Assembly: GCA_964016885.1 (NCBI GenBank)
Contig: OZ024750.1
Span: forward strand, 3,720,001 to 3,784,000
DNA: 64,000 nucleotides
Reading direction: 5' to 3'
Origin: Eledone cirrhosa
Lineage: Eukaryota
The notes under the pieces were generated by a model. It was not told where the DNA came from and made no database searches. It saw only the letters and a list, made by a program, of their open reading frames with translations. The translations under genes and the position numbers were made by a program. Of this stretch, positions 20,865-62,035 are shown piece by piece (positions within the stretch are counted from its first letter, which is position 1; each line of letters begins with the position of its first letter).

Positions 20865-20905
20865 CCAAGCTGATGATCCGACTAAGGTGAAACAATTGTT
20901 CTCGG
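20865..20905 (+). ncRNA. Minimal type I hammerhead-like motif, degenerate
   Basis: ccaag-CTGATGA-tCC-gactaa-GGt-GAAAC-AATT-GT-T-ctcgg; palindromic tetraloop in stem III; lies in a ~150-bp insert flanked by (TA)n. Confidence 0.55.
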
Positions 20906-21293: not shown

Positions 21294-21680
21294 ACATTTA
21301 AATAAATTTAAGGTAAAAGACTAATTGTCAACAATATCTTTTACATTTGCATTTTTTATTCTATGCCCATACCTGCATTGTTTTGGCTTTACAAATACAA
21401 ACGTTTATATATATGTCTAACGAATGCACTGGATGTTCCTTACAAGAATCTTCTAGTTTCTTGAAACCTTCGGTAATGAAATAATTATATTGTGTTGTTT
21501 ATTATGTAATTAAATAGCTCTGTACTTTACATAGAGCACTCTTCTTTCCTTTATCTTTTCTATGGAAATACTTAACATATATACATATATATATAAGTGG
21601 AAGGGATATTTAATTTGTTGGAAATTCAACAAATATAAATGTTTATAACTGATACAGAGATTTATAAAACACTCTTTGTA

Positions 21681-21738
21681 TTTTATCTGATAAAAGCGTA
21701 CCAAGGATTTTGGTACCCTTGAAATATATATAATAGAA
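21681..21738 (+). ncRNA. Hammerhead ribozyme, family A, core mutated (CTGATAA, G8A)
   Basis: ttttat-CTGATAA-AAGcGTACCAA-(ggatt)-TTGGTACcCTT-GAAA-T-ATAT-A-TA^-atagaa. Confidence 0.7.
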
Positions 21739-21787
21739 TAAATATGGTTTTATAAATAAAGTTTCCATTTATTTAATATCATTGATT

Positions 21788-21823
<36 letters not shown>

Positions 21824-21943
21824 TGAGTTATTAGTTAGAAAGAAACTAAAACAGACCAAAGAAAAGGAAATGCCACACGTGAAATGTCACTCTTCCGTAT
21901 TCCAATTTTACAACAAAAAACCTCAATAGATTCTATTTCTTAC

Positions 21944-22130
21944 GTTGTTTTCTTCTGTCGATTTAAAACTAATTTTCAATATGAAAACCATAGCCTGTTT
22001 AGTTTCTACAGCAAATTATATTATTGTCTCACATTGCCATCAACAATAATAATAGTATTTATTATATTAAAAACTGAAAGCTGAACGTCAAAATATATTT
22101 CCATGTTTGTTTCTGTTGTCAACGTTTTTG
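21944..22130 (-). other. Candidate non-coding first exon of SWT1
   Basis: The coding exon has an acceptor upstream of its ATG, so a 5' UTR exon is expected; candidate donor gtaaga at 21943 in unique, CpG-containing DNA; the 5' boundary is a guess. Confidence 0.3.
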
Positions 22131-22180
22131 ATATGTTTTAAAATATGTTAGTTATTGAGAAGGTGTCATTTTAAAGGTAG

Positions 22181-22237
<57 letters not shown>

Positions 22238-22387
22238 TGGAAGGGATATTTAATATATATATATAAGTGGAAGGGATATTTAATTTGTTGGAAATTCAAC
22301 AAATATAAATGTTTATAACTGATTCAGAGGCACTGGACGGATTTCTGGAGTAAATATTCAATGATATTAAATAAATGGAAACTATAT

Positions 22388-22556
22388 AAGACATTCACAT
22401 AATCAAAATATGTTTTATTATATATATTTCGGAGGTACTGTGCTGTTTTTTCAGTACGTCCTCATCAGATAAAATATGAGGACGCACTGAAAAAAACAGC
22501 ACAGTACCTCCGAAATATATATAATAAAACATATATTTTGATTATGTGAATGTCTT
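22388..22556. repeat. Inverted repeat of a hammerhead-bearing element (10-nt spacer)
   Basis: 22388-22465 versus 22476-22556; the + copy lacks the CTG of the core. Confidence 0.88.
22413..22474 (-). ncRNA. Type I hammerhead ribozyme, family A, intact core
   Basis: Minus strand: ttttat-CTGATGA-GGAcGTACTG-(aaaaaacagca)-CAGTACcTCC-GAAA-T-ATAT-A-TA^-ataaaa; stems I-III all pair; cleavage triplet AUA. Confidence 0.82.
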
Positions 22557-22573
22557 CATTTATTAATATTTTG

Positions 22574-22637
<64 letters not shown>

Positions 22638-25289
22638 CATTACTGTGATAATGCACAATATAAAATAAAGTATTTTATGTGCCGAAGGTTTGAATATTAA
22701 ACAGTTTCCCAACACTAGAGTAGAAAATTAAAATATATGATATATATACTTTCTTTTACGAAATAAATTCTATTTCTCGTAGAAAACAAATTTCAATTAT
22801 TATATAAAAACTAATTACTCAGAAATATATTTATACTTGGAAAAATACAATTTTAAAAAAAAGAACGGTTTAATAAGGTGAGAAACCTGCTAGCGATGAA
22901 CAGAATGTAATATATAAATTAGTTTTATCCAGAGAGTAAAGAGTCGGAATAAATAAGTAACACACTATAAGTACACACACTATATCTTCATGCTTTCAGT
23001 GAAATATTCTGCCACGATTTTGATGATATTAACGACTGGATAGGAAAACACATGTTAACAGCCATTATTGTAAACAAGTGATAGTGTCGGAAAGCAACTA
23101 GTTCAAGTAGACGTTTTTAACGACATTTTATTTAAGACAAAATATATACTATATTTTGAAATATCATTCATATAAGGTTTGCTTTATTTCAAATATGTAT
23201 TTTGAAGAGATTAATTTAAAGAGTTATAAACCAATTCTGCAATATGTTTAACGACATAACGTAAATATTCTCAAACATCACGTGTGAGAACATTACCGAT
23301 TCCAGAATAATTAATTTCTTACATATGTTCAATTTCCTATAAATTAAGATGTCAAAGTAGTTTGTGTTATATTGATGAGGTAGTCAAGACATTTAGCAAT
23401 GTAGATATATTAAAATAGTAATGATATGGAATCAAAATAACTCAACTTTCTAAAAATTGCAACCAAATTTCCCTCACATCACAATACTGACTTTAAAAAA
23501 GAGGAAAGGGCACCATGGATGATACAATCATAGCCACACTATAACTAAGTTGGTCACGGTTGGAACACCTTTGATCAGGGCCTATGAGAGAGGGAGGTCC
23601 AGCCAGTACTTTGTTCCGGGGCCCAAGAGCAAAGAATGCCCCACAGCAACCATACAACATCCATTTTGAGAAAAGTCTTGACCTGCTTCAGGCCCCAAAG
23701 GGATCTTGTATCGCCTTGCAAAATTTTTCTTGGGGGCTCTACCTTTGATTATAGGTTTGTCTACTTGATCAAAGCTAACCTGGATTAGGTAATATCAATA
23801 ACTTGAAACTTATCTTTAAAATGCTTGTCACTAAAAATAGTTAGTTGATAATTCCCAGTATTTTAAGATTTTATTCCATTTGGCTACAGAAGCAGTAACC
23901 CTCACATTTACTGCACCATCCAGGATGTGGGACGGAGCAAAAGAGTCACTGACTGTTACATCCCAGATGAGACATCTGCCTCTTACCCAGGGACAACCGG
24001 TTATAGTAAAATCTCTTCACACATAGTGACCCCCCCAAATAACATCTGGCTGCTATTTCATTTTATCTTGCATTGGCGTCAGTGATCTGGAGAGGCTGGC
24101 ATACTTGGGGTTAAATGAGATGAGTTTTTCTTTGAGTCATTCCACTCTGGTTCCTCGGAAGGGAAGGATCACTTTGAGTTGCTCTTGCAAGATGTAGCAC
24201 CAAGCAAAAGAACTCTGGCCCTCTTGACAACAATTCTTCCATCACCACTTCAACCACATTCAGGCATCTGCCTCTTCATATAGACAACACAGCTGCCTTG
24301 CCATTGCAAGCTTACTACTACCTCTGCTTGTACATACTGTCTGACTATAACTTTTCACTTTTTCAGGGAACATCACAGAAGCCTTTTTGAACACTATATT
24401 CAGTTGTGAATACTACAATCAAACTTTATATTTATAATTCGAAGTAATCATATTCTTTTTCCTTTTTGCTGAACTGAAGTAAAGACATATATCTAACCAG
24501 AATTATTGTATTTGTCATATTTATCATCATCCTCTTTCATAACAACTAAAAAACTTCACTTCAGGGTAAGACCATTGGGTCTAAATTTTGAAATGTTGTT
24601 GTTCAAACCTATTTGTTTGGGTGAGACAGTTAACAATGTTTACATGATATACTCTCTTTATATTCTGGTATTAATTTCTATCTTCATGTCACCCCATCCT
24701 GACCTAATTTTGTTAAAGGAAGGCTTGAAAGGAAATTAGCATTTTTTTGTTGTCTTTAAAGAATGCGGTGTTAGTGAATCTAAACATTCAGTTTTTGGTA
24801 ATATGATACCACATAACAAGTAAGGTTTTGTCAACTTATGGTGGAGAGCCAAGTAGGGGGCCTGGATATCTGAAAACCTTCTCAAAAGCTATCCTCTTTA
24901 CTTCCTTTACTGAAGATGCAGAAATTCCAAAAATTTTTAGCAGTTAATGTCAGAAACTTCTAAATGATTGCAGCCTTCTCTATGTCATTGTTCAGCCAGG
25001 GCCGGATTTAATGGGGTACAAATGGAACAATTGCCCCGTGCCCCCTGCAGTGGGGAAGCCCACCAGCAACAGCTGGGCTTTTTAGTTTTAGGATAGTTAT
25101 AATTTTTTAATTTAATACCTGTATGTATAACTTTTCAATTCCAATTACTTGCGGCAAGCTAACTTTGCTATGTAAAATTGGGCGGTTTGCTGTGTATTCT
25201 AATTTTTTGTGTATGAGGTGCCTCCCAAACCTGAAGTGCCCCAGGCTGCTCAAGGTCTAAATCCAAAACTGTGCTCAGCTTACGCAGTG

Positions 25290-25995
25290 AATAATAATAA
25301 TTATAATGAAATTATTGTGTACAGTGCTCAGGTGCACTACAATTCATCAAAGGTGCATGTATAGTACATAGAATAATGTACAAATGTCAGGGAAGTGAAC
25401 AGTGTACGAGTCAGGAAATACATGTGTGCATGTGTATGGAGGGGGAATATTAGGTGTAATGTTGGCAAATCTCAGGAAGCATGGAGGTTTTAAAAGATGC
25501 AGTATCTCGACAACTAATAACTGATGCAGGTAGTTTGTTCCATGGAGGTTTTAAAGGATGCAGTATCTCGACAGCTAATAACTGATGCAGGTAGTTTGTT
25601 CCATGGAGGTTTTAAAAGATGCAGTGTCTCGACAGCTAATAACTGATGCAGGTAGTTTGTTCCATGGAGGTTTTAAAGGATGCAGTATCTCGACAGCTAA
25701 TAACTGATGCAGGTAGTTTGTTCCATGGAGGTTTTAAAAGATGCAGTGTCTCGACAGCTAATAACTGATGCAGGTAGTTTGTTCCATGGAGGTTTTAAAA
25801 GATGCAGTATCTCGACAGCTAATAACTGATGCAGGTAGTTTGTTCCATGGAGGTTTTAAAAGATGCAGTATCTCGACAGCTAATAACTGATGCAGGTAGT
25901 TTGTTCCATGGAGGTTTTAAAGGATGCAGTATCTCGACAGCTAATAACTGATGCAGGTAGTTTGTTCCATGCTTCAGCAACTCTGAGTGTGAAAA
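25290..25995 (-). mobile_element. CR1-group LINE 3' end with internal tandem amplification
   Basis: Minus strand reads FTLRVAEAWNKLPASVISCRDTASFKTSMLPEICQHYT*, with a (TTA)n-like tail. Confidence 0.7.
25480..25971. repeat. Minisatellite, 61-bp unit x8
   Basis: catggaggttttaaaRgatgcagtRtctcgacagctaataactgatgcaggtagtttgttc. Confidence 0.97.
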
Positions 25996-26459
25996 TGAAG
26001 TTTAATAATCATTTTCAAGTATTTTCAGTTCGATGCTATTTGTTGCTTATATACAGTATTTAGTTGACCTCATAGCAACATTCTGTGCTGTTTAGCTTAC
26101 TGGGAAAACTATTCAATTAATGATATCCTGTTGATGACAAACACGTTTTGCTTGCTTTATGGACTGGTTTGTCTATTTCCAGATTTCAAAAGTAAAACTA
26201 ATTCTAAGCATGAACACTTCATAGGTAAGCCAAGGACAAAATTTAAACCTTTCAGTTTTTGATATCTTCTGAAACTAGGTTCCTTCATCATTCAACTAAA
26301 GTTGATAGCAAATATTTGATAGAATATTTCGTTAAAGCCGTATCTCCCCACACCACAGAAAATGATAAGAAAATAAATCATCATCATCATCTTCGTTTAA
26401 TGTCCATCTTCCATGCTAGCATGGGTTAGACGGTCATTAATTCCTAAAAGGAGAGGACA

Positions 26460-27210
26460 CTTCTACTTCTACTACAACCACCACCACCACTGCTACTAAA
26501 ATTACTATTACTACTACTACTACTACAACCACCACCAACACCACCACCACCACTAACAGCCCTCCACTACCACCACCACCACCACCACCCACACCATCAC
26601 CACCACCTCCAACAACAACAACAACAACAACACCCCCTCCACCACCACCTACCTCTGAGAATATTAACCCCCAACGGCACTATTCAATTTCTTTTTAACA
26701 AAATTTAAAATTCAATAAAGATGAAAGTATACCTTTGCCGTGTCAATATTTAAACACAAAATTTAAAATACCTAATAAAAAAAACCCATCTAAAACCATT
26801 CTGTTAACTTCATTTTAATCTTTACAAGAATTGAATCTTAAATTCCTCTTAAGAACGATTGAAATTCTTCATATTTATAGTGCAGTCATGCAGATTGTAT
26901 TTTTTATTCAGCTTCAAAATCTAAAGATCTATACATTATTTTGTCTTTTGCCTTGTTTAGCAGTGCGAACAGATGTTAAATAATGATGATGATGGTGGTG
27001 GTGGTAGTGGTGGCGGTGGTGTTGATTGGGGTGGTGTTGGTGGTTGTGGTGGTGGTGGTTGTGATTGTGATGGTGGTGGTAGGGGTTGATGATGGTGGTG
27101 GTAGGGGTAGTGATGGTGAGGATGATGATGGTGGTGGTGAATATGGAGATGGTGATGGTGGTAGTAGTAGTAGTAGTAGTAGTAGAAGTGGTGGTGGTGG
27201 TGGTGGTAGT
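26460..27210. repeat. (ACC/ACT/AAC)n tract and opposite-sense (GGT/AGT/GAT)n tract
   Basis: 26460-26650 and 26983-27210 are low-complexity trinucleotide runs. Confidence 0.9.
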
Positions 27211-30200
27211 ATACTCTCATACAACTGTTTATTGCTTGTGCACAACTGTTTATTGCTTGTGCACAACTGTTTATTGCTTGTGTTATGAGAAAAACTTTTC
27301 AAGTTATTTCTTCAGTATTTAAAAAAAATATATATATAAAATAATATAAAGTTCTTTATTAGGATGACACTTATGCAATTTTCTACTTTCCTGGCTTCAC
27401 AATTCTGTTTATTTCTCTGCAGCTGTTGTTTACTTTGATAGCAGGTTCATTATCTGTAAATCATAAACTAGTTATTTATATCTATTTCTTAAGTGTTTAT
27501 CTCAGCCATTGCCATATTTCTAATGAAAGGCACTGCCTATAATTTTGAATTTGGAGAGAATTAGTAATGTTTCTCACAATCGGCGACGACATTGAGGGTG
27601 CTAATGAAATGTGTTAGAAAAACTTAACACAGCCCCTGATGTATAATATGCCTAAAACTGAAGGCGAAAAATTAGTCAGAATATGAACTTTACAGCAAGC
27701 TCCAAAAATTTCTGGGCTATTTGGGCTCAAGACAGACTTTAATGCTGTGATTGACAGGTGTCCTGTCCCCGGGGGAAGTCTTGTACTCTCAGCTGCTTCA
27801 TGCCATAGAAACCAGGATAAACACGTTGTTATCAACTTGTGGCCCGGGAAATAATAATTTAAACGTGCTTTTGTATCATAATAATTTGTCTGGTGGATTT
27901 CAAAAATAAGTAACTTTGCAACATTGAATGCATTATCATAGAGTTTTCAATGAGCCTCCAGCCATTAGACTCTAGACATTTTAGACTCTCTTTAGCAAAG
28001 TATTGTACCAATATATGATATCTATTTACAATTAAGATAATAGATTCAGTATTTTTGCCCTAAACACAATACAGATAAAGTCATATCTTAGGTGGTATCA
28101 ATTTCTATATCAGCTGATTTTATAATAATAATATAAAAGAAATTCAAAACAACTATCAAAGAAGACATCAATTTTCTTTAATTCTGTTTAGAATGGTTTA
28201 TAGCTTCTAGGATTACAAAAATCCAATAAAATACATTTATCTTATGTCACAGCCAAAATTTAACCACTTTTTTTTAATAACTCTCCAATCACACATAACA
28301 TTTGGATATCGTTGAGGTTACCTACACTTTAAACTTTTTATAACTTGATCAATATTTTTATTAATGGCAGTTCCTTAACTAACTTCCATTATCATTTCTT
28401 TTGTGTTTTTTTCTAAAGCCTCAAATAAAGGGGTAAAGGGTAAAGACTCCCTTCAGTCACAAATGATCATGAGATTAGCACCTAAAAAGTTTCCCTTCTG
28501 AGGCACTATGTTTTTTATGGAAGACCAGCAGTCACCCATGCATACCAGCTACTTCTCTCCGTGCCACTGGTGTTGTCCAAGGAAAAAGCAATGGCTGATA
28601 CAACTTGGCACCAGTGACATTGCAACTCATTTCTACAGAGAGTAAACTGAAGTAATATGAAATAAAGTGTCTTGCTCAAGAACACAACACATTGCCCAGT
28701 CCAGGAATCGAACTCACAACCTCATGAGGTGAGGATTGAATTCAAAACAATGCAGTTATTGATAAGAAGAGTTGAAATTAATGCATGTAAGATTTCACAG
28801 CTCTAGCATCATTCTTTCATAGTCATCCCATGAACCTTTCAGCCCAGCCTCGTATATACATAGATGCTAAGGTATTATTTGAGGAATATTGATGACATAT
28901 TAAATTGTGAGAGTATAAACAAAGAACAAAACAGTTTTAACTGATTGCCTTGATTCAGGCTTTAACTAATAGATCATAAACATACACACAATTGTTTTTT
29001 TCATAGTCATTCTCTTGTATAAGATAATATACTGTAGTTAACACTACCTGTCTTTTATATTTATTCATTGTAGAGTGGATCAATAGTCACTACTAGACAG
29101 CAACACTTAGAGATACTTCCTTTGTTGTTTTATTTGAACTTTTCATAGCATGACTTCTTTTGTAATATTCTTCTTTTGTATATTCTCAACAGTATATTCT
29201 CAACTGACAGAGAACTCAGAAGATTCTGATTCTAGAAAATACATTGTAAATTACACTACTAATGCCATATGAAAAACATGTTTTGAGAATATAATGTAAA
29301 CATCTCTTGTTTGGTCATGGTTTTGTGTGTGGTGTGAAGTCAATTAAATATAAATCTTCTACTGAATATGCTCCCAGTGTAGTTCAGATAACATTCACCG
29401 ATGATCTGATCTCTGCTTAGAAAAAGTGCCATGAAATGAAAAAGATAAATTAAAACATTCTGAATGAAACCCAATAAAATTGAATAGGGATTTGAATTTA
29501 TTGTGAACCCTATCCCATCAGCCATTTTGCTTGTACTTTAGAAATATAACATTTTTGTATATTGACCTACTTCATTGGAATTAATTATATTGAGCCAAGA
29601 TTCAATGTTAATTAGGTAGATATATTGAGTTATAGAGAGCTTTCTAGAGTTTTTTATTGGGGAGGGGGCAGTAACTATTGTGGTATCAGTAGACCAAGAT
29701 GGAGTCTATTTAATAACACATGAATGGGTTGCCTGCTGTAACATATTATTGATGAATCTTTGTCAACTATCCAGATGACATTCAAACATTACTGCAACAG
29801 CTATTGTTTTGTTGTCCTGAGAAGGGTCTATTAACCATTTAGTATTTAAATCGGCCATATCCAGCCAGAATTCTCTCATCTCTTTTTGTTTAAATTGGCC
29901 ACTCATACTAATGTTAAGGTATTGTTCTCAAAATAAATATCAAAATCTCATATATTCGATATTATGTGAGATAAAGCCTTTACTGCGAAAATACAATAGT
30001 AGATATAGAGTAATGTAAATGCTAAAGGGTTAAAGTGGGGGGTTCAACTTGGACTTCAGTCACAAAACCAGAGAACCAAAGAAGGGCTTGTGAATATACT
30101 AAATCTTTCCTTTCCATTATATAGGCTCTGACACAGGTGTCACCCCACATCAATATAATTTCTGTAATATCATTTGGTTGAGTCAGAACCAGTAAAGCCA

Positions 30201-30388
30201 GTAAGAGTTAAATGTTAAAGGAAATAAATTGAAATAATAATGACATTTCCATTTTTTTTTAATTTGATAATAGAAATATTTCAAAGGTCAAATGATAATG
30301 AAAGATTTTTTTGTTGAAAATCAGTGTAGTAGTAGCAGCAGCAGCAGCAGCAGCAGTATTAGAGTAAAGACTAGACTTCAATCAATGT

Positions 30389-30617
30389 TTAACCCTTTAG
30401 CATTTAAACTGGCCATATCTGGCCAGAATTCTCTTGCCTCTTTCTGTTCAAACTGGTTGTAACTGGCCACTCATACTGATGTTAAGGAATTGTTCTCAAA
30501 ATAAATAATATCAAAATCTCATAGCTTCAATATTATGTGAGTTAATTATGTGAGGTAAAGTTTTTACCATGAAAATATAATAGTACATATAGAGTAATGT
30601 AAATGCTAAAGGATTAA
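30389..30617. mobile_element. piggyBac-type MITE (TTAA-flanked, CCCTTTAGCATT TIR); copies at 12317-12510, 29831-30033, 31071-31299, 37523-37739, 60036-60254, partial 33473-33529
   Basis: TTAA|CCCTTTAGCATTTA ... TAAATGCTAAAGGG|TTAA ends with a shared ~220-bp interior. Confidence 0.8.
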
Positions 30618-31944
30618 TGTGATGCAGTTGTAGGGCTGTCTTATACTTTTCAAGAATATCTTGCTAATGTGGCTTCATGTGGTTTGTTAATTCAAATGTT
30701 TATAGTATCTTTACTAGTGGACAGATCATTGTAAAAACTTGCAGTATTAAAGTAATGATTTTGATTTTTTAATGTGATGCAGACGCAAAGTGCTGTTTTG
30801 TACATTTCAAAGAGAGCCCTACTAATGTGGTTTCATGTGGTACAGGATGTTAAGGCTTAAGTCGAAATCTAGAATATTTGTGCATTAGATATGAGTCGTA
30901 AAGTACTCCTGTAAATGTCTTTCTTGAGCTTTGTAAAGATTAAGTAACTGATCATAGCTGAAGTATTTCTTGGTTTTAAAAAGAAAAGGTAATAGATAAA
31001 CTTTTAGAGTAACTACAAGTCATTATTGCTGAAAACCAGGTGCAAGAGTGATAAGAACTCTGGGAACATGTTAACCCTTTAGCATTCACATTACTCTGTA
31101 CTTACTATTGTATTTTCACAGAAAAGACTTTACCTCACATAATTATCTAACATAATATTGAATCTATGAGATTTTGATATTATTTATTTTGAGAACAATA
31201 CCTTAACGTTGGTATGAGCGGCCAGTTATGAACTGTTTGAATAGAAAGAGGTGAGAGAATTCTGGCCGGATATGGCCGGTTTAAATACTAAAGGGTTAAA
31301 CTTGGTTTTATTCAACATGAAAGCTGGACACACTCTACATCTGGTCTCCCACAATGCTATGGCCACAACAAAAAAACGCACAAAGTACACCTTGTATGCT
31401 GAACAAATGCGCCCAGTCCATCCTGTAAGGCGGTTGTGTTTGCGACACAACAAAAAGCACCCAGTCAACCATGAAAGATGGTTGAGCTAGTGACACGACA
31501 AAAAACGCCCTGTACACCCTGCAAGAAGGTCGTATTGGTGCCACTACAAAAGGCACCTAGTCTACATTGTAACGTAGTTGGCGTTAGAAAGGGCAACCAA
31601 GCCAAAATACAGTTCCATATGAACATATGACGTGGTTTCTCGATCTGATTTGTCTCATAACATGACAACCCGTCTAACTGGTGCAGGAGTGGAAAAATAG
31701 AGGTTAAATGATGATGATGACTCATTTCGCATGTGTGTGTTTGTGTGTAAATATCCCATAAGTAAGACTTTATTTAAACATCAATTTAATAATGAAAGCT
31801 GTCTAATTTAAGAGACACCTGGTATATTGATTAGAAAATGTAATCAGCGCTTTATGGGACGCCCTCTTGCGGATGTTGAATATGAAGGGTGTGAAAACAA
31901 GGGGAAGTAAGTAGTGTTGCCGGCGATCAGTGAGTCGCTCGACA

Positions 31945-32043
31945 ATGAGCAGCGCGTATGTTAAGGAGAATTTTGCTGTTGACATAAACTATGATAGTTC
32001 ATATGACAATAACAAAGCGAGACGAAAACAGTCTCTATGGAGG
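31945..32043 (+). CDS. MAN1B1: MAN1B1 exon 1 (cytosolic tail)
   Basis: [33 protein letters not shown], then gtaagt; CpG-richer upstream region. Confidence 0.85.
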
Positions 32044-32610
32044 GTAAGTTATATTAATTAAAGAATATTCTAAATCGTATTGTTATATATTTAAATACCC
32101 ATCTACACCAGCCTATGCTTTATCAAGTCTCTACATAAATTTTCCCGATACCACGTTCTGCATATCTATCGCGAGCTTCTGTGCCGCATCGAACTGCTAA
32201 TTACCAAGTCAAATTTGATTCTATTTAACAATAAAATATACCCCTTAAAATACCTTTAAACACCTTTTTCACCATCTTATATTATGTACTTATCTTATTC
32301 ATTATACATCTTCCTGTCTCGAAGATATTCCGCCACTGTCATAGTCACCGCTGAGAAATTGTAATATTTTTGTAAACAATTCCACAACGGGAATGACATA
32401 ACTCCACACACGATCACCTCCTCATATGTTTAATTTATTCCATTGATCTTTCTCATCGATATGTATTGTTGCTTTATATTTATTATTTTCACTAGTCTCT
32501 TCTTTGATTTGCATAGATTTTTATATAAAATTATGTGAAAGAATCTAATCGCGAAATTCAACGGCTTAATTAATTGATTGATGTGAGAATCGCCTGGTAG
32601 TATATTTATT

Positions 32611-32659
<49 letters not shown>

Positions 32660-35600: not shown

Positions 35601-36423
35601 GTAACAGCGAACAGAAGGCTTCAGTAATCTCTTTAAATTGGCATTGGCCACTATATAAGAACTCAATTCAGTCCAGCTGTGGATACATAAAAGATGAGTA
35701 AACTGACTGATTAACTCGAAAGCATATGTATAATAAGTTGTTATCAGTTATAATAAGTTGTTATCAGTTTTTAATTATATCCATTGAGGGTTAAACTGCC
35801 ATCCAAAACAACTGCAGTTCATATTTTATCACTAGCTTTCTACAGTTATTAGTTGATGTTTAAATGTCTCAGCCTCTCAAACTCTAGGTTATGGTACATG
35901 TTAGAACTCATTGCCAACAGTGGGAGCCCTGTATAATTAATGAGATTTGTGTCTAAATCCTCTCGTTGATGTCACTTGGCTGTCACTACTCTGTATATCC
36001 TAAATAAGAAGACTACAGATGATGTCTCTACACTCCAGTGAGTTATAGGACTTCTATAATAAGATTATATCTTCATGTCTTCCATCATTATTGAACGAAT
36101 GTTCAGTTGTAACATAAATTAACTTGTTCTATATAGATTTTACACTTCTATTGTTGATTTTTGGACTTTGTTACTTCAATGGAGAAGTATTGTATCTTGA
36201 AATTAACTTTCTTTTTAATGATTATTTTCTTGAAACTATGCAATTTTATAATCTTTCATTTAAAAATAAAATTCAGTTTAGCAAGATCTGTCTGTACCAG
36301 CCTGTCCAAAACCACCTTTGTTTCTATGAATTGGGTGCATTTTATCATGGCATCAGCATTATCATTTTGCAGCATGGACTGGGAGATTTTTTGTGGCCCC
36401 AGCACTACATCTTACATAGTGGA

Positions 36424-36471
<48 letters not shown>

Positions 36472-38991
36472 ATGAATTACAATTTCACCTTGGTCAATCA
36501 AGATTAGAGTAAGCAGTTGATGATAAGACCACAATATTCCTGAAACTATAGCCTAGTTAATGTCTCTTTTTTTATTCATGGTGAAATTGTATAAACAAAG
36601 ACAACTGCTTACGACTGTCCAGTGAATTTAATCAATTTTAATTTGTGTACACATTCAATAACAGCTTAAATCTAGATGTTTATTCTGTAGTGAATCATAT
36701 ATTGATTTCTAAATCAGTCATAATAGTTTCAATTCTAAAAGGTGGTAATGTTCATGTATAAAGAAGCTGTTACTAGGAGATATAATTTTAACAGAAAAAT
36801 TAGATTGAATTAAATATCTTTAGTAAGTTTCCCATTTTTATGATAGAAAGTAACTGTGACAGGTGCATGTGTAACTTAACCCTTTTCATTACTCTATTTC
36901 TAATGAAAGACCGTTACCTATGTTAGTCAAATAATTTTGGAAAGATTTTCTAATATAACTAACTTTCCAGTTAAACTGGTGTTTGGAAGATAACTTAAAA
37001 AAGATTCTTATAATTATAATGATTTCTACTACAAACACAAAGCCAGCAATTTGTGGGGAGGGGAAAGTTGATTAAAGTGACCCCAGTGCATTACTGGTAG
37101 TTTATTTTATCGACCCTGTAAGGATGAAAAACAAAGCTAACCTTGGTGGAATTTGAACTCAGAACATACAGGGACGTAACTCTATGCTGCAAAACATGGC
37201 ATCCAATGCTATACCGATGCTGCCAAGATTTTTAATAATATAATAAATAAATATAAACAGTTAAAAACAATCAGCTTTATATTATAGAACCAGGGGTGGG
37301 TTTCAGACTGTTCAGTAAGGAAGGGTTGATAGTGTCAGTATTTTTTTTGGAGTGAATTCCTGACTCTGGAAAAGAAGAAACATAGCCTTTGTGATGGAAT
37401 CTGTGTAATTGTTATGAAAGGTCACCAAACATTTATGAGTGCTATGGGAGTGATTGTGATGGTTTTTGCTGTGTTGTTGAAATCAAAGGATTTTATGTAT
37501 CTATATTTTACTTTCTTTTAATTTAACTCTTTACCATTCACATTACTCTATATTTGCTATTGTATTTTCACAGTAAAGGTTTTACCTCACATAATATCAA
37601 ATCTATGAGATTTTGATATTATTTATTTTGAGAACATTACCTTAACATTAGTATGAACAGCTGGTTATGGCTGGTTTGAACAGAAAGAAGTGAGAGAATT
37701 CTGGGCATATATGGCCAGTTTAAATGCTAAAGAGTTTAAGGTATGAATGATAACTAAATCATTTTAAAAATAATATTTACTGCCAGCCATATGAAATATG
37801 CAGAGGCGCATGGCCTAGTGGTAAGGATGTTGGACTTATGATCATAATGTTGTGGGTTTGATACCTGGGCTGAGTGGTCTGTAGTGTTCTTGAGTAAAAC
37901 ACTTCACTTCATGTTGCTCCAGTATACTCAGCTGAAAATGAGTACCAGCAGTAGCTGGGGGTTTAACCCTGTGATGGACTGGCATCCTGTCCAGGGGGAA
38001 GTCTTGTACTCTCAGTCACTTCACACCATGAAACCGGGATAAACATCGGCCTAACGAGCCTTAAATGGCTTAAAACAGACTTTAGACTTTAGAATGATTT
38101 ATCTACTCATACAGTTTTATGGACTCTGATATTCTGTCTTAGGATGGGGAAGGGGTAAGGAAGGCCAGATCTGGCTGTATGGGAAAGTAGAGGCTATAAA
38201 ATACTATAAAAGACATACTTTAGACATATGAAATTAAGGCTTCTAGTCAAATATAGATACATTTAGACTATCATATAGTTAACAGATGTGAACAGTAATT
38301 TGAATAGGAGTAAGCTGGGCCTGATAGAGAAACCATTAGATTAATATATTTCAGGATGAAAAAGCAGCCATATAAATGTTGATAATGGAAATAGTTTTCT
38401 CCAAATTCTTTTCTTCATGCTATTAACAGTTTCTCTTGGGATTTCACTGTTTCTATTGAAATTCTCAGTTTCTCAGCTTTATTTTAAATCTGACTTCTTA
38501 AGCCCACTTATTTCCATTATCTACCTTTATAAATCAACTTATGACAGGTTTGAAGAAGATAAATTTGTATTTATTTTGGCAAATATATTTTATTATATTT
38601 TGTTACAACTCTGCTTTCAATCTTTGTCATAAAACAGTTCTTACTGCTGAGAAGTTTTAACCTCTGGTGTTTGATTACTTGAGATTAACTGAGGTCATGT
38701 ATTTTAACTAAAAGTTATATATATATATATTTATATCATCATCATCATCTTTGTTTAACGTCCATCTTCCACGCTAGCATATATATATATATATATATAA
38801 TTATGTAATAAACAACATAAGACAATTATTCCATTTACCAAAGGTTTCATGAAGACAGACGAGCTCAACAGAGACGTCTGAAATCCCTCATCAGAATGAA
38901 ATAATTGTCTTTTGTTGTTTATTACATAATTAAATAGCTCTGTAGCATACATAGAGCACTCTCCTATCCTTTACCCTTCCTACGGAAATAC

Positions 38992-39025
<34 letters not shown>

Positions 39026-39678
39026 GAAGTTCTATTTAAATTGTTGGGATACAACAAGCAAATATTTTTATAACTGATATAAAGCACTCAACAAATTATT
39101 GGAGTAAAAATACGATATATTAACAAATGGAAACTATATTTATAAAACCATATTTATTTCATTATACATATTTCAAGGACACCAAGTTAAATTATGGTGT
39201 GCTTTCATCAGATAAAATATAATATAGATCAGTTTTATAAATTAATATTGACATACCCTTAAAGAATGCGACCATTTCTGTTGGAAGCTCCCAGATAGTG
39301 GGGTTATTAAATTTATTTATTGTATTATGCAAATTAGTGTCGGATATGTTTAAATCACAGTAGATTTAAAATAAGCCGTTGGGGTATGGAGAAAGGGAAA
39401 GAAAAGAAAGAGAAAAAAGAGAAAAACGGCTTATTTTAAATCTACTGTGATTTAAACATATCCGACACTAATTTGCATAATAGAATAAATAAATTTAATA
39501 ACCCCACTATCCGGGAGCTTCCAACAGAAATGGTCGCATTCTTTAAGGGTATGTCAATATTTATTTATGAAAACGGATCTATATTATATTTTATCTGATG
39601 AAAGCACACCATAATTTAACTTGGTGTCCTTGAAATATGTATAATGAAATAAATATAGTTTCCATTTGTTAATATATC

Positions 39679-39740
<62 letters not shown>

Positions 39741-42700: not shown

Positions 42701-45700
42701 TCAAGTGGTTAACCTCATTGATTGTATTTACATGAAGTAAAGGAAAGGTTACATAAAACTGTAAAATAACATTTTGAATTAAATATATATATTCTAGCAT
42801 GGAAAATGGATATTAAACGATGATGATGATGATGATTTAATTCATGTGTATATATACATGCACACACACACATTTATATTTGGAAATTAGTTGTGCCATT
42901 CAGCAAACCAAAAGGGCCACATGCAACTCACAGGCCTCAGTTGGCCCATGACTGAAGTAGAGACTCCCTTGTTAGTTATAATATTTGACTGATGAGGGAT
43001 ATGCTGTTGGGTTATTAGCATCCCCCTTCAAGGTGCAAAGTCTTGAGGGCTCTCTCGAGAGAGAGCTGGTCCTATCTGTCAAGAAGCTGGGCTCCGACTG
43101 TGGGTTCAGCCCATATGAAATAAGTATGCAATGAAAAGGGTGTGTGTTTATGTTTAATCTACTCCCAGGAGGATTATCAGCATCTATAACTATTGCAGAC
43201 TGGTGAAGGCTGGTCCCATCTGTTGAGAAGATCGGCTCCTACTGTGGAATCAACCCGTATGAAATAACTATTGAAATCAGCTAAATAGCCTTTTACAGGA
43301 TGTTGTCTAAAATTTGTGTATAGTATATAGTACGAATAATAATTTAATATAGGTCATTATAGTAACCACACTATCTTATACATGTGTGTGTCTGAATAAT
43401 AATTTAATATAGGTCATTATAGTAACCACACTATCTTATACATGTGTGTGTCTGAATAATAATTTAATATAGGTCATTATAGTAACCACACTATCTTATA
43501 CATGTGTGTGTCTGAATAATAATTTAATATAGGTCATTATAGTAACCACACTATCTTATACATGTGTGTGTCTGAATAATAATTTAATATAGGTCATTAT
43601 AGTAACCACACTATCTTATACATGTGTGTGTCTGAATAATAATTTAATATAGGTCATTATAGTAACCACACTATCTTATACATGTGTGTGTCTGAATAAT
43701 AATTTAATATAGGTCATTATAGTAACCACACTATCTTATACATGTGTGTGTCTGAATAATAATTTAATATAGGTCATTATAGTAACCACACTATCTTATA
43801 CATGTGTGTGTCTGAATAATAATTTAATATAGGTCATTATAGTAACCACACTATCTTATACATGTGTGTGTCTGAATAATAATTTAATATAGGTCATTAT
43901 AGTAACCACACTATCTTATACATGTGTGTGTCTGAATAATAATTTAATATAGGTCATTATAGTAACCACACTATCTTATACATGTGTGTGTCTGAATAAT
44001 AATTTAATATAGGTCATTATAGTAACCACACTATCTTATACATGTGTGTGTCTGAATAATAATTTAATATAGGTCATTATAGTAACCACACTATCTTATA
44101 CATGTGTGTGTCTGAATAATAATTTAATATAGGTCATTATAGTAACCACACTATCTTATACATGTGTGTGTCTGAATAATAATTTAATATAGGTCATTAT
44201 AGTAACCACACTATCTTATACATGTGTGTGTCTGAATAATAATTTAATATAGGTCATTATAGTAACCACACTATCTTATACATGTGTGTGTCTGAATAAT
44301 AATTTAATATAGGTCATTATAGTAACCACACTATCTTATACATGTGTGTGTCTGAATAATAATTTAATATAGGTCATTATAGTAACCACACTATCTTATA
44401 CATGTGTGTGTCTGAATAATAATTTAATATAGGTCATTATAGTAACCACACTATCTTATACATGTGTGTGTCTGAATAATAATTTAATATAGGTCATTAT
44501 AGTAACCACACTATCTTATACATGTGTGTGTCTGAATAATAATCTAATATAGGTCATTATAGTAACCACACTATCTTATACATGTGTGTGTCTGAATAAT
44601 AATCTAATATAGGTGACACTTGTGATTTGTAGAGTCAGTAACTGTTCATGGCTGAGCTGTTTTCTAGACTTTGAGAAGTACATGTGTAATGATGTCGACT
44701 TGTGGAAACTATGAATAATTGTTTCTACTTTTGGCACAAGGCTAGCAATTACCCCAGTGCATTACTGGTACTTTACTTTATCGACCTCGTAAGGATGAAA
44801 GGTAAAGTTAACCTCGGCGGATTTGAGCTCAGAACGCAAAGGGCCATAACTATACTGCAAAGCATGGTGTCCGACGCTCTACCGATACTGCCAAACCTAT
44901 GAATAATGATCATCAGACATTATGAAGCCTAATATTTATTACAACATTAGTTGAGGTTGGGCGGAGCAGACATGTACAAGGTGTAGTCTACTTCCTTGTT
45001 AAATGTAAGGATTCTATGTTGGTGTAATTCAATAACATTAAATTCTCATGGCCACATTGGAGGATGTTTCAAGGTCTTTTTTTCCCCCTAGGATTAATGG
45101 GGAAATCATCATCATCATCATCGTCATCATCATCATTATCATCATCGTTATCATCGTCATTATTTTTATGTCCGTTTTTCCACACTTATATGGGTTGAAT
45201 ACAGATGATGCCTTTTGCTGCAGATTAAGCAGGGTTGAAGAATGGTATGATCTGTGGGGAAGTGTTTTTGATTAGAAATAAATCAGTAAGCAGATCATTG
45301 ATCACCATCATCATCATTATCATTGCCATTTTCACGTCTCCACTCTTCAATGTTTGTATGGGTTGGACAGGTCTTCTTCGAAACAGTGTCTCACCACTTG
45401 TGCTCTTTTTATTTTTCATCTCCTTTGTGTAGGTTCAGCACTCCGAGATCAGCTTTCACCACTTCTGCCTCTGACTTCTTTGGTTTTCCTCTTCAATAAC
45501 TTCTTTCTACTAGGAACTCCTGGCACATCTTTACCCAACTGTCGTCATCCTTGCTTTTATTAGCAATCTTCTTTCTTTTATACAACGTCCAACCCCTCTT
45601 GTACTTGGCTTTTCTCTTGGTTCACTTGTGATTTATAGAAAAGAAAAAAGTGTCAGTATTGTGTGTATTTTGGAATAATTTGTATAATGGAGAGTTATTG

Positions 45701-48700
45701 TAAAGAATAAAATTTCTGTTTCTACAGAGAGCTCAGCAACAGATGCCTATTCAAAGAGGAGGGGAACAGATTGTGTTACAACCACCTGAAGTACCTCTTA
45801 AGGTAGCGGTTAGCATTATTTTTCTATTATGTTGTTATACCTCATGTATTTTGTCTTTTGTCATTATTTAAGATTCTCAGTGAGATCCTTTCTCTTCTCT
45901 TTTTTTCTAATATTATTTCTGTTTGTTTTTATTTTGTAGCTTGACAATCTCCAAGAAAGACAAATCCATAGGCCAGCTGAAGGGAAACACGTTCCTGAAA
46001 TACCATTTATACGTATGTTGTTACAAATACCTTTCACATAAAGCTCACTTATTCTCCTGGACTTAGTTTAACCTTCTGGACGCTACAGGTACATTATGTT
46101 GTTGATAGAGTAATCTCCCCTTAATAACTAATGCAGTGTCAAGGGAAGCTATTTGTAAAAAATTCTAGCGCGCTGAAGGTTAAAGCTGCTAGTACTGACT
46201 GTGACTGTGAAGTACCAGTTGGAAACAAGGCAAACGTTTATACCATTCACTATTTGATAAACCTTTTTATTTCTATTATAAAGTTTCTTCTATATTTTTT
46301 TTAAAAGTATTTTCAGGGTGTATAATTTGAGCCTTAAATATAGGTATTATACATTCTTTTTTTAATATGTTCAGGGTGTATAACTTGAGATTTGAGTATA
46401 GGTATTATACACTCTTTTTTTTATAGTATGTTCAGGGTGTATAACTTGAGATTTAAGTATAGGTATTAAACATGTTCTTTCCCTTTATAAGGAACAAAAT
46501 GCTTGAACTTTTGAACTTTCCTGATAGGGTTGTTGCTGAAGAAAAGTATTGGAAGTGTGTGGCTTAGTTGTAAGGGTGTTGTTTGACTAACAAACATAAC
46601 ATCGTGGGTTCAATTCCTGTATTTAGTTATGGATCATGGACTCTCTGGTAGCATTAATGTCCTGAATACTTAAGTCCACTATATATTTCTATTTCTTAAC
46701 CTCATCTCCTGATTTGGTGTCATCTTTGTCATCATTCCACTCATTTTCTAACCAATTATCTTCACTGTGATGAGAACATCTAGTGGAGAATAATACATCT
46801 CTAATTCCTTTTAAGTCCTTTTCTTTAATATTCATTCCTACATCAAACAGATTCCTTATTTCTTCTGTGCTGTCAAACTTCTTTGATGGAAACATTAGTT
46901 TAACTCTCATATTCTTTATCATTTCTCTAGTTTTCTTATTTTTCTTTTTCTTGTTTCATACTCTCTGACCCCTTTGTACCATTGTACCATTCCTTGAGAA
47001 GATCAGGTTTGTGAGCTGGTAATATGGAATTTCATTGATTTCTGAAAATTATTATAGCCAGTGCTTGTCATGTTTGTTTTGTTTTCTTTTTCTTGCATGT
47101 GTGGTATCAATAATCATGTCCCTTTTTCATTGCCAAAGTTATTCATTAATCAATCAGAGATATCTTTCACTGCATGAGTCTATTTTGAGCACAGGAAAAA
47201 CAGTGGAAGTAGGTGGCCTAGTGGTAAGGGTGTTGGCCTTACGATCATAATTTTCTGGGTTTGATTCCCCGACTGGATAGTGTGTTGTGTTCTTGAGCAA
47301 AATTTTCATTTCATGTTGGTGAAAATAAGTACCAGCAATGTCCAGGGAGTGTCTTATTCTGACTGCTAATTTGTTAGTATCAAACATTGTATATTATCGT
47401 CAGCAGAATCAGCACCATTATACAGGGTGTATCAAAATGAATCATGCGGTAACTATACAATACATGTCTGAATATAAAGTTATGTTTACAATTTTTACAA
47501 ATGCTCAATCTGCCCTCCTCTGGACACACGACATACCTTTATTGTACAAGACACGAATTGTACAGGTTACCACATGAATATATAGTCATTTGTTTAAAGA
47601 ATATAACCTTTTGAGATCAGATGATTCTTTTTGATAAACCCTGTATAATTGAAAACTATTGTAAAAATCTGAATCATAGCATATTCTTTACATATCTGAG
47701 TTCACATCCTGTCGAGGTTAGCTTTGCTGTTCATCCTTACAGGCTCGATAAAATAAAGTACCAGTAACACACCGGGGTCGATTTAATCGCCTTTTCTTTC
47801 CCCTGCAAATTGTTGGTCCTGTTTTAAATCAGGAATCATATTATACCATCTCTTTCAAGAGTATGTCCTTAAATATGTATTTTAAAAATCTGTGTGCAAT
47901 AAACTTGCATGATTCTACATTATCTGACAATGTAATTGTATACTTTTTACCTATACTACTCTGCATTTCTCTTTCTTCAAAATTGTCAGCAAGTATTGCT
48001 GTCTAAGATTATTTTTCTGATATATGTTGATAAAATGACAGGGGAGGAGAAAACTGTGATGTGTTCCTGATCTGAAACTTAGAATCAGCTCAGAGTTTGG
48101 ATTAGTAAAAATAATAACAAAATCCCATATGCAAATAGTTACAGTTGTCTCTTCACCTGTAATGTTATTTATTGCTTTCCATTAATCTGTACTTTTTTTT
48201 ATATAAAGCCTTGCCTGAAAACTTCAAATAGTTTCACTTCTTTTGTTGATCTGACCTGGTATCTTGTCTGCTAAAGGAAGCATATATCAGTTTACTCTTT
48301 TGCATCCAAATAATCTTTGCTCATCTTCTTAATTCTTAAGCCTGTCATTCTTCTTACTGAGTCCATATCGTATTCCACTAAAACTTTGTTCAGTCAAACA
48401 CATTTCTCTGCTGCATCTTCTTCACTAAATACTGCTGCAGGATCATGAGAAGTGCATGGTTCTTGCATTAGAAGGCATCTCTAGTGGAGTAGCAGACTAC
48501 TGCGTCATACAAACAGTACTGGGGTCTGACTACTTACACACGAATAAGTCTTTTTGAGCTTGCAAGGGACTCACTTTTATTTTTGTCTTCTGTATGTAGG
48601 TCTTGAAGTTGAGACAGAAATCAAAGATGACTCTACTGGGATTTTTTGAATGTATATTAAAAAGAGTGATTGATAGGGACAATGTCTTGCATCACTTCAT

Positions 48701-49067
48701 TTGGGCGACCGTGGATTTTGGTACTCTTATATTGGTTTCAGTTGGTCGACTGAGACTCTGCTGTCGAGAATTTTAATTGGTGTCGATCCCATAATTTATT
48801 TTTAGATCTCTTTATATCAAATGGGTGAATTATTTCCTTTTAGCATAAAGTAACACAATTCAACACAGCCGTGTGTGTGTGTGTGTGTACATATATTTAT
48901 ATATATATATGTGTGTGTGTGTGTGTATATATATATATGTGTGTATATATATATATATATCATCATCATCATCACCGTTTTACATCCGTTCTTCCATGCT
49001 AGCATGGGTTATATATATATATATTTATATATATATATATATATTTATGTATATATGTGTGTGTGTG

Positions 49068-49098
<31 letters not shown>

Positions 49099-52000
49099 AT
49101 ATTTATATGTATATATGTATATATGTATGTGTGCGTATATATATCAGATTGGAGGAGGTAAAAACCAGTTAGACCATTACTCACCAGAGTACTTGATACT
49201 TGGGTTTGGATCGAAACGGTCGGAGCTCAGGCGTTGGGGACCTGAATTTTTTTCATATATATATACATATATATAAAATCTCTCTCCCCCCCCCCCCCCC
49301 CAAAAAACAATTGTTGGCCTTGTGCCTAAATCAGAAGCCATTATTCTGACAATTCATTTTGTTGCATTCTCATTATTTGTTTATTCTGTGATTTCCAGTT
49401 CCTAAATCTAAGTCCAAAAGGCAGTTGTTTGTGATTAATGCCTTCAAACATGCCTGGAAAGCTTATCAAGAATATGCTTGGGGTCACGACGAATTGAGGC
49501 CAGTTGCAAAAGCATACCATGACTGGTTTGGAGTTGGACTGACCATGGTTGATGCGTTAGATACAATGTATATTATGGGTCTTAATGAAGGTAAGCTCTT
49601 CACAGTTTCATGTTTTCTTATTTTTTTTATAATCATTATATTTATATGATTATAATCATTGTATTTTAGTACATAGCCTTCTTCTTCTCCTCCTCCTCCT
49701 TGTTAAATTTTCTTACTTTCAATTATTCTCTTATATATATATATGCATGTGTATTTTTTGTTTGTATTCTTTCGTTTAGAATTCAGTGAAGCTCGCAACT
49801 GGGTAGAGAAACACATGCTGTTAGATATAAACCAGGATGTGAATTTATTTGAAATAACTATTCGTATTCTTGGAGGCTTACTAAGTGCCTATCACCTGTC
49901 TGGAGATGAAGTGTTCAAGCAGAAAGCTGTAAGAATTTATACTTTAATTCATGTTTTTAACTATCTGCATCATCACCATCATCATCACAATTATCATCAT
50001 CATCAGCAGCATCGCCATCATCATTTTATATTTATTTTCCGGGCTGGACAGTTCATCATGATTCAAAACAAAAAAATAGGTTGGATAACCTTGTTCATTT
50101 GTTTCATATTTTGGTATGATTTCTATGGCTTTCTTTTCTTCTTATTACCAACAACTTTACAGAGTGTACTGTGTGCATGTTATCATAGCATCACCACTAC
50201 AACTATATAGAGTGAACTAAGTAGATTTTATTATGGCACCAACACTAGAAAAGTTGTCATGTGCTCAATAAATCTGAAGAGTTTCTCTGTTCTACACTGG
50301 CTTCAACACTTGAGAAGTTGTCAAATTCTTGACAAGACCAAAAGGCCTTTCTACTCATTGACTCAGTTCATTGATCAACCATTTGACAGGGCCTGGCTAC
50401 CTACTGAGCACATTCTATTGTGACATCAACTTTAGAGGGGTTATCCCATCCACTGCAGGTTAAAAGGGATAATAATTTGGAGTGGGGGACTATGCAAAGC
50501 ATTTAAGAAATATAACATGGATTAACAACAAACATTTTAAGGCTATTTCCCCTGCTAAGCAGGGTTTAGCTTTACAAGTAGCCCTGAGACAAACCTCATA
50601 TTCATCATGGGATCCTCTGAAGCAATGTTTTACAGTTGGATGACTTTTCTGGCACCAACCCTTTTAGTTGCCTCTAATGACACACAGGGATATAATGTGT
50701 TTTAAACTGGATATACACAGCAAATAAAATGGATTAACATATAACAGAAATGGCATTTATAGTATGATTTCTCTACATACTTCCATAACCATTGTTTCCA
50801 GAACTCTCGCAGTCTCAACTGTAGCTGTTTGTTTTGTTCATTTTTTCCAGAAAGAACTTGGAGATCGATTAATGCCTTGCTTTGATTCCCCTTCTAAGAT
50901 CCCATACTCAGATGTTAATTTAAAGACAAAAAAAGCTCATCCTCCTCGCTGGGGCCCAGACAGCACTACCTCTGAAGTAACAACAATACAACTTGAATTT
51001 AGAGATCTAAGTCGAATTCTCAATGATCCAAAATATGAGGTTTGTATATTTTCTTTTTACATACATAACAAAATAATAAACATTTAAAAAAAAGAATTAC
51101 AAAGGAAGATTGTGCTTGTATAAACATAATATTTACAGTAACACTAACATGGTGGGATTTATAATAGAGGTGTATATGAAGGAATATACAATATATTTCT
51201 GTATAATAAATCTATATAAGTTTCACTATGACTGAAGCAGTGATCATGTCACAACTATCTCAGTTGCCGTGTGAGAATGCCAGACATTAATGTTTCAGGA
51301 TGCTTTATCCCTCATCAGTGATACTCAGTTGGTACTGAGGCTAGAATAAGCTATAGCTTATATACTTTTTTACATATATTCTTAATCGATAGACAAGTTC
51401 CCAGACCTCATTCACTTACTGAGTCGGATGGAAACTCGTCAAATGGAACCAAGGAAACAATGTTTCCATTGGTATTTCCATTGCTAATACTAGCTATACT
51501 ATAATAATTTTATTTTACATTAAAAAAAAACATTATATATAACAAAAAAAGAACATTACAAGAAATCCCATATTTACGAATGTACACTATACAATTACCA
51601 ATTCCCCAATCATAAGAATTTAAGCTTATTCCAATCCCTCCTTATTATTTGGGACCCAAGACTAACTATTATTTTTGTGTTTTCATACATAAACATAGCA
51701 ACAACAACAAAACAAAACAAACATTTAGATAATTCAATTTAATTCAATATTTATTTCAAATGTGTGCGGTATGACATGTAATTTGAGAAAAATTCACAAA
51801 TTCTGAATATATTATAATACAATACAATTACCACTAAATATACGGATATGCTATATATATATATATTCATTCAAATATTAACAAAAATAGAACTTCATTG
51901 TGATCAAGTATATTTTATTATACATATTTCAGAGGTACTGAGCTAACTTCAACAGTACGTCCTCATCAGATAAAATAAGATGATGCATGACATACACTGA

Positions 52001-61970: not shown

Positions 61971-62035
61971 AATATCAGTTTCTATTTATTAATATATTGT
62001 ATATATGTGTATGTATGTATATATATATATATATA

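Follow-up and report, generated by a model that had tools for sequence, protein, structure and literature searches.

The window analysed here, a 64,000-nucleotide (nt) stretch of the genome of the octopus Eledone cirrhosa (contig OZ024750.1, positions 3,720,001 to 3,784,000), carries six copies of a hammerhead-shaped RNA motif, a broken open reading frame (ORF) of a related element at its end, and an endoplasmic reticulum (ER) mannosidase gene whose introns contain three of the hammerhead copies. The motifs belong to Penelope-like elements (PLEs) of the Hydra clade, in three lineages (A, G and E), and the window copies are 5'-truncated 3' ends of these elements, mostly placed as inverted pairs in (TA)n. 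Our explanation, to which we assign a probability of about 0.87, is that type I hammerhead-shaped RNAs sit in the pseudo-long terminal repeats (pLTRs) of Hydra-type PLEs, that the window copies are short 3' fragments, likely from early-stopped reverse transcription primed at (TA)n, and that the predicted cut after AUA would be weak and made as a dimer or with protein.

Each of the six copies, five full (21681+, 22413-, 39157-, 39589+ and 51911-) and one truncated (22476+), was found where an earlier note on this DNA had placed it, with C·C at pair 4 of stem II and with the stem II pairings quoted there (Table 1). The type I assignment of that note also stands: the copies have the core CUGANGA...GAAA, U16.1, H17 and three helices with helix I open, numbered by the hammerhead convention. 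The core, described there as shared by all full copies, is intact in four of the five; the 21681 copy reads CUGAUAA (G8 to A), and since G8 and G12 are required for hammerhead catalysis, its catalytic core is gone. Likewise, the loop of stem III is AUAU in three copies only and AUGU in the other three, and the self-complementary unit is more than this loop, comprising the whole 8 nt (AUAUAUAU or AUAUGUAU). A loose core pattern gave eight matches in the window against 1.98 expected, and none of 100 shuffles reached eight. The hammerheads at 39157 and 39589 are identical and form one inverted duplication, and those at 22413 and 22476 make up a second inverted pair, which brings the number of independent insertions in the window down to four, from four subfamilies. 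Four stretches match the 3' ends of full units elsewhere in the genome: 21660-21823 (84% to L155), 39110-39424 (85.5% over 318 bp to L154), 39425-39738 (85.2% over 331 bp to L164) and 51849-52029 (91.8% over 183 bp to L091). The long tail of the 22413 copy reaches about 22255, and within 22255-22412 (-) it changes from lineage G to lineage A after about 30 nt, which by its sequence suggests a template switch or recombination between families.

The link to PLEs drawn in the earlier note is borne out by the genome, where the same or closely related hammerheads flank frames encoding a reverse transcriptase (RT) and a GIY-YIG endonuclease. A unit consists of a hammerhead, about 200 nt, the RT/GIY-YIG frame, an untranslated region (UTR) of 0.7-2.2 kb and another hammerhead, and 17 such hammerhead-to-hammerhead units measure 3,334-4,513 bp. 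Among 20 endonuclease loci, hand-picked for high score or long frame from 150 listed matches, 14 carry the lineage-G hammerhead of the 51911 type downstream of the endonuclease, and in five it occurs on both flanks. A lineage-A hammerhead with a start codon 190-220 nt further on was found at 19 places (control 0), 18 of which begin a Hydra-type ORF. A second hammerhead-ORF pattern gave 33 places, and 25 of the 30 retrieved lead into an ORF, 19 of the 21681 type and six of the 22413 type. For example, the 21681 stem type precedes ORFs in L179, L180, L188 and L191, and the 22413 type does so in L176, L184, L186, L189 and L190. In lineage E, relatives of the window ORF are flanked on both sides by a hammerhead of this same build, in which pair 4 is C·U and the palindrome is AUGCGCAU. 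Taken over the genome, four of the five window stem types were seen directly before a Hydra-type RT frame, and the fifth type matches the 3' end of ORF-bearing units at 85% identity over about 320 bp; the proposal of a non-autonomous family in the earlier note is not supported. The stem types agree with the clades of a tree built from 44 ORF 5' ends, each ORF clade having its own stem II variant. The window family is ordinary truncated debris of autonomous Hydra-clade elements.

The ORFs are those of endonuclease-positive (EN+) PLEs, a single frame with the RT followed by the GIY-YIG endonuclease, and the layout is also that of this group, with hammerhead pLTRs around the ORF, 5' truncation, an inverted upstream copy and a tail at one end. 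Locus L060 has an unbroken frame of 794 amino acids (aa) with DKT, YRDD, CxCx5C, CxxC and CxH and without CCHH, in which the endonuclease motif reads LIY-YFG. DKT replaces DKG in all three lineages; the CxCx5C linker, CxxC and CxH are present, again without CCHH, and the linker is shortened in the decayed copy L166. Together, DKT, CxCx5C and CxxC/CxH in the absence of CCHH are diagnostic of Hydra-clade elements (Craig et al. 2021, PMC8557442), and insertion into (TA)n, a habit of the same clade, was seen in 40 of 45 copies. The proteins of lineages A and G are 51-53% identical to that of E. A PDB sequence search did not recognise the Penelope-like protein, and a fold search with the predicted L060 model returned RTs and TERT; the model has a mean predicted local distance difference test score (pLDDT) of 63.6 and a predicted template modelling score (pTM) of 0.38, so only its RT core is trusted.

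In the 3.0-Gb genome, a strict pattern had 28,064 exact matches and a relaxed pattern 55,272, with none for the reversed controls; both counts are lower bounds, and the density is one hammerhead per 54 kb or less. Copies were found by pattern, and a similarity search with a 91-nt copy, which skips very common words, matched nothing. Rfam reported no hammerhead family in the window at E<=5, nor at E<=1 in L060, L085, L155 or the outside locus L211, its output there being microsatellite-driven microRNA matches only. The Rfam models miss hammerheads of this whole kind, so their silence is no gauge of novelty. In contigs of two sequencing runs from one sample, depth over L085 was 93,000-289,000 in pLTR bins against 690-16,000 in the body, which fits heavy 5' truncation; these figures are not used as support (possible source sample; other lineages counted too).

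Insertion ends were read in the first 45 distinct copies along contig C1 from both patterns, where AT microhomology blurs the ends. The (TA)n run starts 32-66 nt past the predicted cut in 28 copies and 129-157 nt past it in 12, and an inverted partner lies upstream in 11. The copies extend 7-1,213 nt upstream, 28 of them under 80 nt and 17 starting at 58-78 nt, a cluster that is in part a reference artefact from divergence. A fixed transcription start about 75 nt upstream was not established, the upstream pLTRs of 44 units beginning 2 to >700 nt upstream. The word CACUAUCC or CACUACC occurs about 75 nt upstream of stem I in L155, L164, L060 and L091, in all three lineages; it lies at the frequent 5' truncation point of lineage A and is possibly a promoter or an RT pause site.

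Downstream, between the hammerhead and the start codon, we found a bulged hairpin of the form RCUC-inner stem-UH-GAGY, at 52-62 and 141-158 nt past the cut. Of the 44 octopus units, 40 contain it, 29 of these in two copies (shuffles 0.5); where outside loci offer 100 nt of sequence or more, 27 of 32 contain it (shuffles 1.8, maximum 5). Among 66 distinct instances, the register with a 2-nt bulge has its inner positions paired in 60 of 66, 47 of 62 and 34 of 37 cases, with several pair types, and other registers give 2-11 paired at the first pair. These pairs were counted by an anchored script, because inner stems of unequal length are wrongly placed in a MAFFT alignment covering 50 of 69 hairpin references. 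The end of the element falls within a span from 9 nt ahead of the first hairpin base to 1 nt beyond it in 34 of the 45 copies, and the tail of the 39017..39424 fragment ends in (TA)n about 146 nt past the cut, 3 nt before the reference position of hairpin 2. By analogy with the two internal start sites of Poseidon PAc from the green anole (Frangieh et al. 2024, PMC11167929), the hairpin, conserved across the clade, is likely an initiation signal for the copying enzyme. No paper describing it was found in the searched literature. The same pattern also occurs at 14099-14130 (+) and 50261-50282 (-), with no reported hammerhead nearby.

The insertion ends bear directly on a different origin of the copies, namely a non-autonomous retrozyme or mini-element of 200-300 nt that spreads via self-cleaved circular RNA and a borrowed RT. 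We regard this as very improbable. Most copies are indeed short, with the starts clustered as given above, and animal retrozymes derive from pLTRs (bioRxiv 2026.07.22.740005). However, head-to-tail like monomers were seen in 0 of the 45 copies; the six with a same-strand neighbour within 1 kb always have one of another stem type. The non-coding tandem hammerhead monomers of a non-LTR (long terminal repeat) retrozyme are thus absent from this sample, and ORF-bearing units exist. Moreover, the spread of 5' ends continues into the UTR of those units, the short cluster is partly the artefact noted above, and every stem type tested tracks an ORF clade. In addition, the copies stop short of the second hairpin, and a long-tailed copy presumably could not be templated from a short one by this route.

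In the elements that we favour as the source, autonomous Hydra-clade PLEs, there are at least 11 subfamilies of the hammerhead, and their stems covary. Compensatory change in stem II, as the earlier note had claimed, is two-sided in six of seven pairs among 21 representatives, in which 98% of stem II cells are paired (34-53% in slid controls), pair 4 is never a standard pair and the covariation score was reached by none of 500 shuffles; the representatives were hand-picked for diversity, and sequences that are related may outscore such shuffles even when no structure exists. On inspection, shifting the register of stem II by an extra base after A9 gave worse pairing and was rejected. The 8-nt unit of stem III varies as well (AUAUAUAU, AUAUGUAU, AUACGUAU and AUGCGCAU), each variant being self-complementary, and this covarying palindrome, suited to cleavage as a dimer as had been proposed, agrees on sequence grounds with the published model of cleavage as a dimer (Cervera and de la Pena 2014, PMC4209133). 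Across the three lineages, every core letter, A15.1-U16.1 and the AUA triplet are invariant. There are 8 pairs in stem I, to which folding adds a predicted internal loop and distal helix. Some lineage-A subfamilies (L171, L175 and L179) have U·U at the base of stem II. The same U·U occurs in Hydra magnipapillata elements (PMC8557442, File S2) and in 15 hammerheads of an outside set, in which 78 Hydra-type metagenome loci yielded 42 distinct hammerheads with one mismatch allowed in the first six pairs.

The earlier note had singled out an invariant C-C and a long stem II as atypical. The unpaired C at pair 4 is kept, and its partner is C or U (C·Y), the sister lineage having C·U. Across the genome, C·Y occupies pair 4 in 51,929 of 55,272 copies (94%) and C-G in 201 (0.36%). 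In the outside set, position 4 is paired in all 38 scorable hammerheads, and neither C·Y at pair 4 nor U15.2-A16.2 occurs in the 26 Hydra rows of File S2 (PMC8557442). Stem II is 9-11 pairs long in nine of the 42 outside hammerheads. Its length is therefore nothing unusual, and what sets the octopus clade apart is the mismatch. The suspicion that it is uncatalogued holds for the outside relatives and the searched literature; no paper was found on these octopus hammerheads or their mismatch, and Repbase, Dfam or the O. vulgaris repeat library (PMC13282606) may hold the families.

Whether the mismatch matters is less certain. It might be a frozen accident that descends from a single ancestral octopus element and has been tolerated without having any function, and we give this some weight while holding it to be unlikely. 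The sample comprises just three deep lineages; pair 7 also shows no change, so that the invariance of C4 alone is unexceptional among stem positions, and pairs 3 and 8 changed once. On the other hand, C4 shows no change over 11 clades, over which none of 22 fourfold sites is invariant (mean 3.05 changes). CpG sites are highly mutable. C4 lies within CpG in many subfamilies and turns into T with age (7 of 153 copies), yet no subfamily has fixed T, and no repaired C-G subfamily is evident among the first 100 of the 201 C-G copies. C4 is probably under selection, being more conserved than neutral sites, and the C·Y mismatch is most likely a docking site or hinge that would keep cleavage dependent on a partner; this is the weakest step of our explanation.

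Several observations weigh against the overall explanation. The exact 39589 stem was not found beside an ORF. The RWK motif reads RWR in lineages A and G and RWI in E, Pfam recognised no RT or GIY-YIG domain in any of four proteins, and the clade was assigned by diagnostic motifs and the published alignment by eye, not by a tree with named Hydra elements. The cluster of starts at 58-78 nt would be compatible with preference for a short template. Folded in isolation, the hammerheads show no unusual stability (z from -2.1 to +0.4), and the minimum-energy fold differs from the hammerhead in two of five. In place of the usual G-C, most subfamilies have A-U, G·U or U·U at pair 10.1-11.1, and 15.2 is U here and C in all 42 outside relatives, both of which could lead to poor activity. 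The anole hammerhead needed its protein, and cleavage was dispensable for insertion in vitro (PMC11167929).

Some of these features would also suit a fold that is kept for binding or folding of a ribonucleoprotein (RNP) and hardly cleaves, its core serving packaging or translation of the ORF 200 nt downstream. A weak 10.1-11.1 pair, the mismatch at pair 4, A+U-rich stems and modest fold energies agree with such a role; minimal PLE hammerheads are poor cleavers in vitro (PMC4209133), and in the reported work on the anole hammerhead, which needs protein, no RNA ends were seen at its site (PMC11167929). We nevertheless consider it improbable, since the fixed core letters, A15.1-U16.1 and cleavable AUA of three lineages, together with the compensatory change of the palindrome, are expected only if the active three-way junction forms.

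Compared with known systems, the hammerhead-bearing PLEs described here share with Hydra-clade elements (PMC8557442) the protein features (C-terminal GIY-YIG, DKT, CxCx5C linker, no CCHH), the insertion habit ((TA)n targeting, inverted 5'-truncated copies) and the ribozyme (type I hammerhead in the pLTR, palindromic stem III, U·U at the stem II base). They differ in unit length (3.3-4.5 kb, against 'generally under 3 kb'), in tail length (about 95 nt, against 30-40 nt) and in their copy number of 55,000 or more. They were judged distinct from Hydra-1_Obim, whose hammerhead differs and has no match in this genome. Tail length aside, the truncation, inversion and one-sided tail follow the known pattern of PLE insertion. 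Minimal PLE hammerheads, whose helix II has 7-8 bp (PMC4209133), resemble the octopus ones in this long helix II, a short palindromic helix III and many covarying subfamilies per genome, and in mostly solitary, truncated copies and opposite-strand pairs 100-700 bp apart. Unlike them, the octopus hammerheads have no extra base between 9 and 10.1 and no conserved G10.1-C11.1, and they have an internal 1x1 pyrimidine mismatch and a stem I of 8 pairs with the folded internal loop and distal helix. PAc is similar in that two internal RT starts downstream of the hammerhead define the tail, the target is AT-rich and both strands are cut and extended; its starts lie at an AC-rich stem-loop inside the ORF, (PMC11167929), whereas in the octopus both ends fall within the 5' UTR, with a separate bulged RCUC/UH-GAGY hairpin following each. 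Animal non-LTR retrozymes (PMC7229834; bioRxiv 2026.07.22.740005) share the type I hammerhead, low G+C, copies in the tens of thousands (126,247 motifs in the axolotl, according to the retrozyme literature) and pLTR ancestry. They are non-coding tandems of about 300 bp, whereas the octopus units code for RT and endonuclease, and tandem monomers were not observed.

A possible sequence of events can be proposed for these PLEs. Transcription would run through tandem units, and two hammerheads would join via the 8-nt palindrome and release unit-length RNA from tandem or read-through transcripts by the predicted cleavage after AUA, as a dimer or aided by protein. The element protein would then bind the hairpin and nick (TA)n DNA, and complementary DNA (cDNA) would begin 0-9 nt 5' of the hairpin, at either of two internal sites. 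An early stop of reverse transcription would leave 5'-truncated copies, and where both DNA strands are primed and the two cDNAs are joined, an inverted pair with one short and one long end would result.

Table 1. Coordinates of the PLE-derived features and the host gene in the window.
Feature	Position	Strand	Remarks
Hammerhead, lineage A (stem AAG-C-GUACCAA)	21681..21738	+	Core damaged; C4 21697 opposite C 21717
Predicted cut of the 21681 copy	3' of A 21732	+	
Inverted partner of the 21681 copy, long tail alone, (TA)n end	21585..21659	-	98.7% to tail 22255-22329
Hammerhead, lineage G (stem GGA-C-GUACUG)	22413..22474	-	Core intact; C4 22458 opposite C 22434
Inverted partner of the 22413 copy, truncated inside core, short 3' end at (TA)n	22476..22570	+	90.7% to 22388-22556 reversed
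3' fragment, lineage-A element	39017..39424	-	About 200 nt of 3' UTR, hammerhead, long tail; antisense in mannosidase intron 1
Intact-core hammerhead of this fragment	39157-39217	-	
Bulged hairpin copy 1 (RCUC...UU-GAGY) in long tail	39084..39105	-	Candidate signal for RT binding and initiation
Inverted partner: 3' UTR piece, hammerhead, short (TA)n end	39425..39684	+	93% to partner over 272 bp
Intact-core hammerhead, identical to 39157-	39589-39649	+	Sense strand, mannosidase intron 1
3' fragment, lineage-G element	51852..52029	-	Antisense in mannosidase intron
Intact-core hammerhead of this fragment	51913-51975	-	
Sister-lineage-E copy, 5'-truncated, frameshifted	62027..64000	+	RT thumb, CxCx5C linker, GIY-YIG, 3' UTR
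ER alpha-1,2-mannosidase gene (GH47, MAN1B1-like)	31945-57477	+	11 exon matches

The lineage-E copy is 85% identical to L060 over 1,367 bp; its broken ORF covers 62027-63160, and its C·U-type hammerhead lies about 270 nt past the window end (L031:2770-2839). In the GH47 mannosidase gene, the exon at 57145-57474 is 97% identical to the Octopus bimaculoides protein and 89% to that of Argonauta, and in transcripts the 39589 copy would likely be sequestered in a long duplex with its 93% identical inverted partner. A second, unrelated hammerhead-like family lies at 38800-38960 and 21458-21580, with stem III ACCUUUGGU or ACCUUCGGU and a stem I ending in AUUUCAUU; it has a complete copy at about 38830-38905 (-) in an inverted pair and a remnant at 21458-21480, its tail has the bulged hairpin (21517-21539 and 38937-38959), and it stands tail-to-tail with the C·Y family in the same (TA)n runs. 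Short hammerhead-like cores with a stem II of 3-5 bp at 51293-51318 (-) and 20870-20900 (+), the latter with a relative in L071, are probably decayed copies of other PLE families. Elsewhere, L068:5313-7577 and L069:353-3962 carry a short hammerhead (CUGACGA, stem II of 4-5 bp) head-to-tail every ~420 bp, a candidate for a true tandem retrozyme of this genome. Other features of the window include a match to the histone 3' UTR stem-loop at the Rfam gathering score (60963-61007, -, 34 bits), with no histone ORF nearby among frames of at least 100 aa; a 235-nt near-perfect hairpin at 6193-6427, resembling a miniature inverted-repeat transposable element (MITE), for which a plant microRNA model scored far below threshold; and a lysine-rich open frame of 343 aa at 18222-19253 (-), without a Pfam match, which is probably an exon of a host gene.

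In conclusion, the element class itself is already known, and the octopus genome is dense in its hammerheads, which Rfam leaves undetected. The role of PLE hammerheads and what sets the ends of PLE tails are open questions in this field (PMC8557442, PMC11167929). Here, the position of the hairpin predicts insertion ends to within about 9 nt, and three lineages with at least 11 subfamilies, a near-intact 794-aa protein and a lineage-specific mismatch provide a natural test set. We tentatively propose, as a minority possibility, that the pLTR is a three-part RNA machine, in which the hammerhead would be braked by the selected C·Y until the element's own protein or a second hammerhead engages it, and two hairpins would recruit the RT and set both starts. 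If true, this would be the first defined cis signal for a PLE tail, and it would explain why more than 55,000 ribozymes, some in the sense orientation within introns, can be tolerated by the genome.

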